DNA of 64,000 nucleotides from Escherichia coli (GTDB lineage Bacteria; Pseudomonadota; Gammaproteobacteria; Enterobacterales; Enterobacteriaceae): assembly GCF_003334315.1 (NCBI RefSeq), contig NZ_QOWR01000022.1, one strand, 5' to 3'. The position numbers were made by a program, and so were the translations under genes. The stretch's first letter is position 1. Each line of letters starts with the position of its first letter. Below, piece by piece: positions 60,097-64,000 of this stretch. The notes under the pieces were generated by a model that saw only the letters and a program-made list of their open reading frames with translations, was not told where the DNA came from and searched no databases.

Positions 60097-60852
60097 TCAC
60101 CAGTCAAAACTTTTCACCAGCGTCAGCTCGCCAGCATTACGCATCGGTACAATAAATGTTTCCTGTTTCTCATTGACCGATCCTTCATCGGTGATCAGCG
60201 TCAGTTGGGCGGTGGTTAATTCCGTTTCGCTGCGCCCACCATAGTAGTTGATATACACCTGATAGCGCCCGTGAATTGGCGCGGGCATGGCGAAAATCTC
60301 GGGTCCGTACCCCGTCGTGACATCCATATCCAGTGCACCACTGTTTTTCAGCACCGTGTTACCGTACCAGGCGTGTTCGCCATCGGGCGTGACAACATGG
60401 AGATCGAGATCGGTATTGTCCGTATCCCACGAGAGAACCAGCCGTAAACGTGCACGAATCGTTCCTGTACCCGGCGTTGAGTAAAACTGCATTTTTTGTC
60501 GGCTTTGCCCATCCGGGCTGATGACCTGCACGCTGTTGCTGCCTTCAGTGAAAATATAAGGGCGTGCAAATGAACCATCGGATTCAATTCTCTGCGGCAT
60601 ACTGGCACCGTTGACCACCAGCCGGCCCTGCTGAACTTTACCCGCCGCAGCATAATTCTTTATTTTGCCGCGGATCTGCGCTGAGATATTTTGATCATCT
60701 GCCATGTTGACGGACGACGCCGGGTAATTGATCGATTGTGAAAAACTGGCATCTTCGCCCTCTACCGGATGCCAGCCAGAGAGCGGTGCGTCAATCTCGA
60801 CTTCCTGCACACCTTCACTGTGAGCGACAGGCGAAAGTGCCACCAGTAACAA
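60097..60852 (-). CDS. yfaP: DUF2135-family protein YfaP; apparent 5' frameshift, listed ORF begins at a TTG with no SD
   Basis: 251-codon ORF from TTG. The likely native ATG (60872-60870, MRKIF...) is +1 out of frame across an A5T4 homopolymer. Confidence 0.65.
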   Translation of the reverse strand: MLLVALSPVAHSEGVQEVEIDAPLSGWHPVEGEDASFSQSINYPASSVNMADDQNISAQIRGKIKNYAAAGKVQQGRLVVNGASMPQRIESDGSFARPYIFTEGSNSVQVISPDGQSRQKMQFYSTPGTGTIRARLRLVLSWDTDNTDLDLHVVTPDGEHAWYGNTVLKNSGALDMDVTTGYGPEIFAMPAPIHGRYQVYINYYGGRSETELTTAQLTLITDEGSVNEKQETFIVPMRNAGELTLVKSFDW

Positions 60853-60876
60853 CGGAAGAAAATTTTTCGCATAGCA

Positions 60877-62526
60877 TTAGTCCATTAATAATTGTCGGGT
60901 CAGCGTTTCGATATAGTTCTCATCAAGCCCGGTGGGATAACCATCAAAGGCCAGGTGCAGATACTCATGGGTTAAATCCAGCCGATCCTGAAGCGTAAAG
61001 AAGTTACGAATAAACAGCCGTTTCTGCTGCCGATCGGTATAGGGGAAACCTGAGACTAAACGGCAAACCGCAAACACGTCTGGTTCGTTGTACCCCGTCT
61101 CAGCTTGTAATATACGCCGCCACTGCGGCATTTTTTTCGCCAGCCAGGCTTTCGCTTTGGGTAATAACTGGCAGGTTGAGCGTGGCGCTCCCCAGCGGCT
61201 AAGGCTGTTGTCGGGATAAGCAAACGCGAGTATCTGGTCGTAACGCTCTCCCTGCCCCGCCTGGGCCGTGGCTTGCCGCCAGGAAAGCGTCCCTTCGGTA
61301 GCGCGACTGCCATGATAATGAACCGGATCGCCCGCATAGATGAGATCCTGCGTCCAGGCGGCCATCGTTCGCGCCCCCGTCGTAGCTGGCGAAGCCGAAA
61401 CACGCTGCGTGGCGCTGCTGTCAGGGATGATCAGGCAATCGCCTTCCCGATTGGCGTTTTGCTGTAAAAAAGTGCGAATCGCCACGGTCATGGCTTTCGC
61501 TGCCTCAGGGGGCGTACTTTTCGCCTCGCGATCCAGAACTCTGGCAACGTACTCTTCACGATCGAGATGTGACTGCAATTTCAGTTTGCCCTTTTCGCTC
61601 AGTAAGGTCGTCTCACCGTGGCTGACAAACGTAATGTGGTTACCATTAGTAAACGTCACACGATAGCGCCCATTAAGTACGCCGGGTTTTACTGCCGTCG
61701 TACTCTTTTCCGCTGTGATTTTCTTCAGCGGATAGCGGGCAAACAGCTCCACCTCTACACATTGCCCACTGGCAACCTGCGTCGGCACTGGCAAAACCCG
61801 ATTAAGCACCGTCGCATAACGGGTTAGTACCGTTTTGCTGGTGCCACTGCCAGTAACCCACAGCGGTGTACCATCGGTTAACCAGCCAGCAAAACCACCC
61901 TGGCGGATTTCCTGTTTATCATCGGCAAACCAGCTCCAGGTTTTCACCCGTACCCGACTACCGAGCATGGATGCGACACCGATTTTCGCCTCGTCCAGCA
62001 CCACATCCAGTAAGACTTCCTGAGCTTTGTTTTGCGCAGGTAACGTCGCTAATGAATCGAGCAGCGATTTAACCGTTACCGAGGTTTCTGGCTTCAGCGT
62101 TGTAAGAGACGCTAACCACGCAGGTGCCTGACGCTGTTGCCAGTATTGCCCCCACACATCTGCGCCAATATGCAACCGCTGCGGCGCAAAATAGAGCCCA
62201 CAGGAACGTACCAGCGCGGTATCGCGCGTTATGCTCTCCCCAGCCTGACAACAATAAACCTCTTCCGGGGAGTTTCCGCGACACTGGTAGGGCTGCTCCG
62301 GTTGATGGGTATCCTCCAGCCAGGCGTAAACATACAGTTTCCACAAACTCCCTAACGGCGTGGTGAGCGAGTCAGGTAATGCTGAGACTTTGGTCACGCC
62401 TGATGACGACAGCTGATACAGTTGATCGTGCTGCGCACCGCGCAGCACCAGTTGTAACGGCGTCTCCTCCGCAAGCGTTGGCAGAGTAACCAACGCCAAT
62501 AGCCAGACGATTCTGCGCCAGTTCAC
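60877..62526 (-). CDS. yfaQ: DUF2300-family exported protein YfaQ
   Basis: 549-aa ORF with GTG start directly after the yfaS stop; signal peptide MNWRRIVWLLALVTLPTLA. Confidence 0.85.
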   Translation of the reverse strand: MNWRRIVWLLALVTLPTLAEETPLQLVLRGAQHDQLYQLSSSGVTKVSALPDSLTTPLGSLWKLYVYAWLEDTHQPEQPYQCRGNSPEEVYCCQAGESITRDTALVRSCGLYFAPQRLHIGADVWGQYWQQRQAPAWLASLTTLKPETSVTVKSLLDSLATLPAQNKAQEVLLDVVLDEAKIGVASMLGSRVRVKTWSWFADDKQEIRQGGFAGWLTDGTPLWVTGSGTSKTVLTRYATVLNRVLPVPTQVASGQCVEVELFARYPLKKITAEKSTTAVKPGVLNGRYRVTFTNGNHITFVSHGETTLLSEKGKLKLQSHLDREEYVARVLDREAKSTPPEAAKAMTVAIRTFLQQNANREGDCLIIPDSSATQRVSASPATTGARTMAAWTQDLIYAGDPVHYHGSRATEGTLSWRQATAQAGQGERYDQILAFAYPDNSLSRWGAPRSTCQLLPKAKAWLAKKMPQWRRILQAETGYNEPDVFAVCRLVSGFPYTDRQQKRLFIRNFFTLQDRLDLTHEYLHLAFDGYPTGLDENYIETLTRQLLMD

Positions 62527-63925
62527 TTATTTCACCTGCATCCCGGTCCATTCACTCCCTGCCGCAACACTTTGCTGCGCAGGTGCATAGGAACGCACAT
62601 AACGAGCAGGAGGCAGAACGAATTGCCCTTTTTGCGAGAAGCGCAGCAAATGGCGGAAAGTGACCGTTCCCGTCAGTTCTTTCACCGGCACCATATAGGC
62701 CAGTTCGCCCATTTCATTACGCGCTTTTTCCAGCAATTGCCCCTGCTGTTTCGCGGCGTTGGGTTTATTGACTGAAATGCCCCATGTTGTGCGCTCAACG
62801 TCGGCTCCCGGCGGGAGCGGTACTTCCACCTGACCATAGCGCAGAACTGCATCCTGCTCGCTGGTAAGCGTAATTTCATCGAGATACAGCGCATCGCTGT
62901 CAATCTCATTGCTGGTCACCGGCTGCAGAGTAAAGCTCATCTCTTCTTCACCGGGGATAAGCCGATACAACTGGCGTTCAACGGTCACCGGAATGTTACT
63001 TTGTTGAGCCGTTTTTGCCGGTTCACGCCAGCGGACCTGCACATTTTGCGGCGATAATTCGTCACCAAAAGAGAGAATGTCCGGCACACCCTGACCAACC
63101 CAACGCCAGTCTTCGCCCCCTCCAGTTAACTTATGTTTAGCCCATGCGCCCGCAGGCGCAGGCAAAACAACTGGAGGCATTGTCGCCATATATTTCGCCA
63201 GCCAGTTCATGGCCAGCGCGCGCTCAATAGTGGATTGCTCAGCGGTCAAACCACTTAAAATAGCGGCCGCCTGGGTAGCGTCACCACCGCTATTGAGCAG
63301 CACAACCGTGTGCGCCAGCGGCTGATTGCTGTTTGCCGCTTTATCCCACGCATATTGCTGAACCTGTGGCATCACCGTGGACTTCAACTGCGCTTTTTTC
63401 AGCAACGTCATGGTTAAGACGTTTGCCACCGCATCTGCCAGTGGAGATTCCGGTGTATCGAGGATCAGGCTGTCATTGATATCGCGGGTGTCTTCCTCAG
63501 AGAAATCTTCATCTTTAGTTCCGCGCCGGGCGATAGCTTCATCCAACCCTTTCAACAACGTTTTGCACGGCAGATTCATCTCCTGTGCCCACGCCAGCAC
63601 CAGCGCCCGATGCAATAACGGCATGTTATCTGCCTGCTCGGCATAACTGTCGAGCATATGCTGCCAGTATTCCGGTTGTTGCGTTACGCCGAGCGCCTGG
63701 CTGGCCTGCCAGTCGGCGTACCATGCCCATGCCGTAAGGAAGGCGTCACCATTGCCATCTTCACCCCACCAGGTAAAGCGCGCTCCGGGCCCCGCCAGTT
63801 GCATCAGCCGCAGACGGTTATCCTGAATCATCTGACGAATGTCGTTAGCGGCGGCACTTTGATGATCGGCAAGCGAACGCCAAGCGAGACTGAGCGGGAT
63901 CAGACGGCTACCGGGGTTGATCACC
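62527..63925 (-). pseudogene. yfaS: 3' fragment (about 465 codons) of an alpha-2-macroglobulin-family gene, truncated by IS186
   Basis: Open frame ends at 62527 with TAA. Going upstream it hits a stop at 63934-63936, and all three minus-strand frames contain stops within 63926-64000. Full-length homologues are about 1500 aa. Confidence 0.6.
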
Positions 63926-64000
63926 CATAAGCGCTAACTTAAGGGTTGTGGTATTACGCCTGATATGATTTAACGTGCCGATGAATTACTCTCACGATAA
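63926..64000 (+). mobile_element. insL: IS186 left end (terminal inverted repeat and start of transposase insL), continuing beyond the window
   Basis: CATAAGCGCTAACTTAAGGGTTG... matches the recalled IS186 terminal IR. ATG at 63981 encodes MNYSHD(N), the recalled InsL N-terminus. Preceded by a G4N6C4 target-like sequence. Confidence 0.75.

Follow-up and report, generated by a model that had tools for sequence, protein, structure and literature searches.

What do two lesions in a single operon say about the selection acting on it? The question is raised by the yfaP-yfaQ-yfaS gene cluster at the end of a 64,000-nt stretch of Escherichia coli DNA (contig NZ_QOWR01000022.1 of assembly GCF_003334315.1; hereafter the window), in which yfaP is frameshifted close to its start and yfaS, encoding an alpha-2-macroglobulin-like protein, is interrupted by the insertion sequence IS186. 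A reading made from the letters of the window and its open reading frames (hereafter the sequence-only reading) had described the cluster as decaying in this strain, and had taken the two hits as a sign of relaxed selection in the source lineage. The account favored here is that a known operon has probably been inactivated by an older deletion in yfaP followed by a recent IS186 insertion in yfaS, an ordinary loss of a kind that recurs in E. coli. The open reading frame listing and annotated complete genomes place yfaP, yfaQ and the last 465 codons of yfaS on the minus strand, after the plus-strand atoDAEB genes, as follows.

60097-60852, minus strand: yfaP remnant open reading frame, 251 amino acids (aa) if an internal TTG is the start.
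60762-60872, minus strand: frame from the native yfaP ATG (60872-60870), out of frame past codon 4, with a stop at codon 37.
60859-60867, minus strand: site of the yfaP lesion, A5T4 where other strains have AAAGATTTTT in a 19-sequence alignment.
60877-62526, minus strand: yfaQ, intact, 549 aa, with two DUF2300 domains and a weak SpoIID match, at the position of MagE in the Pseudomonas aeruginosa mag operon.
62527-63924, minus strand: 3' fragment of yfaS, 465 codons (about 1040-1504 of the 1504-codon RefSeq model).
63913-63926, plus strand: IS186 target GGGGTTGATCACCC(C), the left copy of an 11-13 bp target-site duplication.
63926-64000, plus strand: left end of IS186, an IS4-family element that RefSeq calls IS421 family; visible are a terminal inverted repeat of 23 bp and ~50 nt of adjoining interior.

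The yfaP lesion combines a G>A substitution at 60864 with the loss of one T from the run at 60859-60862, in codons 3-5. The window reads ATG CGA AAA ATT TTC TTC CGT TGT where 15 of 15 other aligned haplotypes read ATG CGA AAG ATT TTT CTT CCG TTG (MRKIFLPL...). Comparison with 5374 complete E. coli genomes finds the exact 69-nt allele in 96, which come from many laboratories, hosts and countries and of which at least 12 match the window at 100% identity over 7.9 kb. An allele common to 96 genomes is neither a sequencing error nor a chance feature. A different history is suggested for a YfaP homolog labeled E. coli (P0010, 260 aa), whose N-terminus, MLCERFFFRCYWWRFRPVAHGEG, is in the window's alternative frame and is followed by the normal frame, as a frameshift and a compensating shift in another lineage would leave it.

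The yfaS lesion is marked by a perfect 23-bp terminal inverted repeat, CATAAGCGCTAACTTAAGGGTTG, whose left copy lies at 63926 and both copies of which are found in the genomes of E. coli ES3 and PI12. IS186 sequence runs from 63926/63927 to the end of the window, so that 74-75 nt are visible, and its transposase gene would read on the plus strand, opposite to yfaS. The break in the gene falls at codon ~1040 of 1504 in the RefSeq model, between the A2M and bMG10 domains; the fragment that remains encodes bMG10 and part of the region that positionally matches the thioester domain. ES3, the nearest complete genome, has the same junction as the window and the whole element of 1337-1339 bp, with a transposase (WP_001300563.1) that an IS186 copy in K-12 also encodes. 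The element is flanked there by an 11-13 bp duplication, GGGTTGATCACCC, which recurs in PI12, and beyond it lie the remaining 3.1 kb of yfaS and then intact yfaT and yfaA. The same arrangement would be expected in the window strain. With yfaS split by IS186, this strain has lost the ability to produce the macroglobulin at full length.

The source strain is closely related to ES3 but distinct from it. Six single-nucleotide polymorphisms (SNPs) separate the two in the last 20 kb (at 44911, 44928, 45869, 54397, 56052 and 63026, the last within the yfaS fragment), and a repeat array outside that stretch differs in length by 339 bp; together these rule out that the window is ES3 itself. The array lies between mqo and eco (window 37327-37766) and is built of a 113-bp unit resembling repetitive extragenic palindromes and bacterial interspersed mosaic elements (REP/BIME-like). 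The window has three units more than ES3, and copy number varies among very close relatives.

Could either lesion be an artefact of sequencing or assembly, a possibility that the sequence-only reading itself had named? The yfaP deletion falls in a short run of one base, where errors of this kind typically arise. However, the deletion and its adjacent substitution are identical in 96 independent complete genomes, and an independent assembly, that of ES3, contains the IS junction together with the duplicated target and the rest of yfaS. Both lesions are real and the chance that one or both are artefactual is practically nil. They are also independent, as had been proposed, and the description of the cluster as decaying in this strain was a fair one.

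What does the frameshift leave of YfaP? RefSeq raises no pseudogene flag on the gene and calls a 251-aa protein from a TTG at 60852. That product would keep the whole of mature YfaP (DUF2135/YfaP_C, a MagF-type subunit) and, from the signal peptide, just the 12 residues preceding the AHS/EG cleavage site, none of them positively charged. Leaders are longer in 17 of 17 YfaP family members inspected, and an Arg or Lys precedes the hydrophobic core in all but one. A Shine-Dalgarno-like sequence was looked for upstream of the TTG and none was found. The retained ATG lies 4 nt past the yfaQ stop, and ribosomes loading there would read across the TTG until they terminate at codon 37. We infer from these features that the allele is null or strongly reduced.

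If YfaP were nevertheless made, there would be one effective lesion instead of two. Translation could start at the TTG, or a -1 slip on AUU UUC could restore MRKIFLPLL, and the system would then have been disabled by a recent and potentially reversible insertion. The RefSeq annotation of a 251-aa YfaP favors this, as do the retention of the mature protein with its signal-peptide cleavage region, the persistence of the allele in 96 genomes, and the finding that the other four genes of the operon are intact beside the frameshifted yfaP in CP53, the carrier examined in full. Precise excision of IS186 is moreover possible (PMC3861542). Set against these points are the missing Shine-Dalgarno-like sequence, the reading of ATG-started ribosomes across the TTG, and a leader of 12 residues with no positive charge in a family where every member inspected has a longer one. 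Spontaneous ribosomal slippage normally occurs at well below 1%, which also counts against the proposal, and we give it a small chance.

The two lesions differ in age, since the frameshift is shared by the whole haplotype whereas the insertion is present in just two of its genomes. Among 5369 genomes, IS186 occupies the yfaS site in ES3 and PI12 alone, both of which carry the yfaP frameshift (2 of 96 haplotype carriers vs. 0 of 5273 others; Fisher p = 3e-4); the site is uninterrupted in the other 94 carriers, among them CP53, whose cluster has the same sequence as that of the window. Altogether 11 genomes lack an intact site. Further IS186 events hidden among them were ruled out, as the other nine are O55:H7 genomes with ISEc20, a single O55:H7 event. 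This element, of the IS110 family, sits in yfaS in a C-rich run 1-2 nt off the IS186 site, both in O55:H7 DEC5E (L005 7510-9002) and in eight other O55:H7 genomes. PI12 has the identical IS186 at the identical position, with the same duplication and in the same haplotype as ES3, but in the opposite orientation.

Why was this site struck in this haplotype? A haplotype-private T>G change at 63915 (the third G) turns GGTGTTGATCACCCC into GGGGTTGATCACCCC, where 14 of 14 other haplotypes examined have GGTGTTGAT(C/T)AC(C/G)CC. The SNP is nonsynonymous (ACC>CCC, Thr>Pro in YfaS) and private among 15 distinct haplotypes sampled, and the target that results is GGGG-TTGATCA-CCCC (G4-N7-C4). Four other IS186 copies (K-12 pdxK-crr, silC, oppB and an rhs element) lie in targets of the form GGG(G)-N5-7-CCC(C), flanked by duplications of 11-13 bp; the IS186 target pattern is thus an empirical one, derived from five insertion sites. 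The closest known parallel is the lon promoter, where a single site takes IS186 in either orientation (PMC3045373) with a 12-bp duplication, and from which the element can excise precisely (PMC3861542). The yfaS target shares with it the G-run, spacer and C-run, the insertion in either orientation and the duplication of about 12 bp (PMC3045373; PMC3861542). Unlike the lon site, it lies inside a coding sequence, exists only through a haplotype-specific SNP, and is known from two natural occurrences and not as a high-frequency laboratory event. Read most simply, these sequences point to a target that the SNP made for IS186 and that the element later struck twice, the ES3 and PI12 insertions being by inference independent events.

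This bears directly on the idea that one loss brought on the next. Loss of yfaP would have made the complex useless, selection would have lapsed in the lineage, and IS186 would then have been tolerated in yfaS. Several observations are consistent with such a sequence. Every IS186 insertion at this site is in a genome with the yfaP frameshift. A third lesion is present in PI12, an extra CAT duplication in the 3' fragment of yfaS (L004 ~8864-8866) that creates an in-frame stop, and which is either further decay or an assembly error. Lesions are also stacked in O157:H7 (a yfaA frameshift and yfaQ Y265*) and in O55:H7 (two yfaQ stops and an IS). E. coli has one YfaP-family subunit against two in Pseudomonas. 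Finally, the changes private to the window lineage are three nonsynonymous, all in yfaS, to one synonymous, vs. 72 to 141 elsewhere. However, a target created by a SNP predicts restriction to the haplotype equally well, and the 3:1 ratio is not significant (p = 0.12, few substitutions). The carriers, nearly invariant over 7.9 kb and with 94 of 96 uninterrupted, have had little time for decay. Lapse of selection after the loss of yfaP is accordingly possible though on the unlikely side; the stacked lesions of PI12, O157:H7 and O55:H7 fit the look of decay after a first lesion without proving it. Because the G4-N7-C4 site exists in this haplotype only, the second lesion reflects the target preference of IS186 at least as much as weakened selection. 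The proposal of relaxed selection in the source lineage is thus only partly supported and is not established: the lesions differ in age, a mutational hot spot can explain the second, the ratio is not significant, and loss recurs across the species in the face of purifying selection.

Which system has been lost? Judged from homology to Mag proteins and from shared gene order, yfaA-yfaT-yfaS-yfaQ-yfaP is the five-gene E. coli version of the six-gene P. aeruginosa mag operon, corresponding to its magBCDEF part. YfaT matches the sequence of the P. aeruginosa MagC crystal structure (PDB 7bk8) with E = 1.8e-103, and identity to E. coli YfaP is 51-58% for YfaP-family proteins of Pseudomonas species. 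Pfam finds MG2 (5e-19), the bait-region domain A2M_BRD (1e-16) and A2M (6e-12) in the N-terminal 1069 aa of CP53 YfaS and bMG10 (4e-06) in the 465-aa fragment of the window. These domains and the annotated relatives, in which yfaA and yfaT lie upstream of yfaS (ES3 and CP53), bear out the identification of the cluster made by the sequence-only reading, an alpha-2-macroglobulin-like yfaS with yfaQ and yfaP. In Pseudomonas knackmussii (L024 594-10804) the order is YfaP_C, DUF2138, MagC, macroglobulin, DUF2300, YfaP_C. The E. coli genes yfaA, yfaT, yfaS, yfaQ and yfaP occupy the MagB, MagC, macroglobulin, MagE and MagF positions, while the gene at the MagA position, a second YfaP_C paralog, has no counterpart upstream of yfaA. 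The first and last Pseudomonas mag genes are thus both YfaP_C paralogs, and E. coli keeps the last alone. In contrast to the mag operon, the system of the window is broken in both yfaP and yfaS.

The products of mag form a periplasmic, inner-membrane-associated complex around a type II macroglobulin, which lacks the thioester (PMC3735191; PMC5764988; PMC12663445). P. aeruginosa MagD traps a protease non-covalently once its bait has been cleaved; MagA, MagB and MagF are each bound by it one-to-one, and its stability and processing need MagB and MagE (PMC3735191; PMC5764988). The operon protects against some peptidoglycan-targeting effectors of type VI secretion (PMC12663445). A similar function may carry over, by analogy, to the E. 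coli operon. The type I proteins ECAM/YfhM and Salmonella Sa-A2M are of the same superfamily as YfaS and are likewise periplasmic, but type I is distinguished by a lipobox, a CLEQ thioester and a pairing with pbpC (PMC3735191). YfaS differs in its partners, yfaA, yfaT, yfaQ and yfaP, and in its sequence: the CxEQ thioester motif is absent from intact CP53 YfaS, which has a single Cys in 1504 residues. The RefSeq model of yfaS (GTG start, 1504 aa) omits an in-frame upstream ATG (L002 23043-23132) that adds 30 residues with a hydrophobic, signal-peptide-like stretch, as in the 1534-codon K-12 model. Searches of solved structures with the sequences of YfaS, YfaP and YfaQ gave no match, that of YfaT to MagC being the only one; NCBIfam offered no meaningful family for YfaP, YfaQ or the fragment of YfaS; and no publication on the operon in E. 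coli emerged when the literature was searched for yfaS, yfaQ and yfaP. Promoter, terminator and Rfam scans of 58000-64000 gave nothing notable.

Is the operon then under selection elsewhere in the species? The sequence-only reading had proposed comparing the locus across E. coli. Mean pairwise ratios of nonsynonymous to synonymous substitution (dN/dS) are 0.074 for yfaA, 0.098 for yfaT, 0.078 for yfaS, 0.125 for yfaQ and 0.050 for yfaP, with 0.018-0.091 for six neighboring ato genes and 0.009 for gyrA as controls. The operon is under purifying selection species-wide, of a strength comparable to that on the ato genes. Lesions were nevertheless present in 6 of 19 sampled genomes (95% interval 13-57%) when genes were translated from their native starts, the 19 having been drawn at regular intervals from two rankings by similarity. 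The control genes (ato and gyrA, ~9 kb of flanking sequence) were free of lesions in the first 13 sampled genomes, CP53 and K-12. The inactivating changes, the last two from beyond the 19-genome sample, are as follows.

yfaA, 5' frameshift, A7>A6: FDAARGOS_1058.
yfaA, 5' frameshift: O157:H7.
yfaA, 5' frameshift, GG>G: PE15.
yfaA and most of yfaT deleted: an O111:H8 strain.
yfaA, L266*: F5656C1.
yfaS, Q670*: FUJ80154.
yfaQ, Y265*: O157:H7.
yfaS, W1338*: K-12.
yfaQ, two stops, with ISEc20 in yfaS: O55:H7.

At least 12 distinct inactivating events were counted in 18 genomes, and the O157:H7-type yfaA frameshift is present in 319. The yfaS pseudogene of K-12 (b4500) shows the same gene inactivated in a laboratory lineage of phylogroup A with the rest of the operon intact; its lesion is a nonsense change, TGG>TGA at codon 1338 of the 1504-codon model, and not an IS, and its yfaP is intact at 258 aa. 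In the O111:H8 strain, IS- and effector-bearing DNA (nleA, nleG) replaces yfaA and most of yfaT. The neighboring atoSCDAEB genes are absent from several lineages (O157:H7, O55:H7, O111:H8 and others), in which rcsC directly adjoins yfaP. Given repeated loss in other lineages despite constraint, loss is not a peculiarity of the window strain; it behaves as a species-wide pattern of conditional dispensability.

Repeated loss of a constrained operon also invites the suggestion that null alleles are positively selected in some niches, through a saving of cost or a trade-off in the envelope. At least 12 events in 18 genomes, despite dN/dS of ~0.05-0.13 for intact alleles, would agree with this, as would the fixation of nulls in successful clones (the yfaA frameshift in 319 genomes, that of yfaP in 96). 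Deletion of magD improves the growth of P. aeruginosa in chlorhexidine, for which trade-offs were proposed (PMC12663445), and the Mag complex is potentially costly to assemble (PMC5764988). These fitness data are, however, not from E. coli, hitch-hiking with successful clones accounts equally well for the frequencies, and neutral loss where the function is not needed also fits. Adaptive loss appears improbable as the explanation. A broader combination, in which the SNP made an IS186 hot spot that predisposes the haplotype to macroglobulin loss, E. coli discards Mag where its loss is advantageous while strong purifying selection acts on it elsewhere, and many nulls are hidden in RefSeq, is rather unlikely as a whole.

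The account that we prefer, ordinary inactivation of a known operon in two steps, can be set out as follows. A G>A change and a 1-nt deletion in yfaP arose first, in the ancestor of the haplotype now present in 96 complete genomes, and uncoupled the coding sequence of mature YfaP from its ATG and charged n-region, probably leaving a product at best poorly translated and poorly exported. More recently IS186 entered yfaS at a G4-N7-C4 site found in this haplotype only, splitting the macroglobulin. In the species at large, intact alleles are under purifying selection, yet many lineages lose the operon independently. Several points weigh against this account. RefSeq accepts the 251-aa TTG product as a valid YfaP, and the effect of the allele on the protein is a predicted one. 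The far side of the IS186 insertion lies outside the window. The ES3 and PI12 haplotypes are near-identical, and one insertion event with a later inversion between the repeats of 23 bp may explain both orientations. Many E. coli lineages are without IS186, which helps to explain its confinement to one haplotype. The interval around 6 of 19 is wide, and the database is biased toward clinical and laboratory strains. Faulty assembly could account for the single-genome homopolymer frameshifts of FDAARGOS_1058 and PE15; the yfaA allele of O157:H7 type, by contrast, is in 319 genomes.

The finding is an ordinary one, in that public data already contain the system, lesions of this type and, through the pseudogene annotation in ES3, the allele itself. 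Annotation can nonetheless mask 5'-proximal frameshifts by shifting the start codon, as for yfaP in 96 genomes and for yfaA in at least 319. RefSeq calls yfaA as 542 aa, with no pseudogene flag, in the O157:H7-type allele (L009 2129-2190; 319 genomes), in FDAARGOS_1058 and in PE15. Since shifted starts hide frameshifts, censuses of pseudogenes that rely on annotation flags undercount loss. A single substitution is enough to produce a target for IS186, and with it gene inactivation can become locally more frequent. For the window strain the outcome is a non-functional Mag-type macroglobulin system; for the species, an operon that is both constrained and repeatedly lost is a candidate for studying envelope defenses that are conditionally useful.

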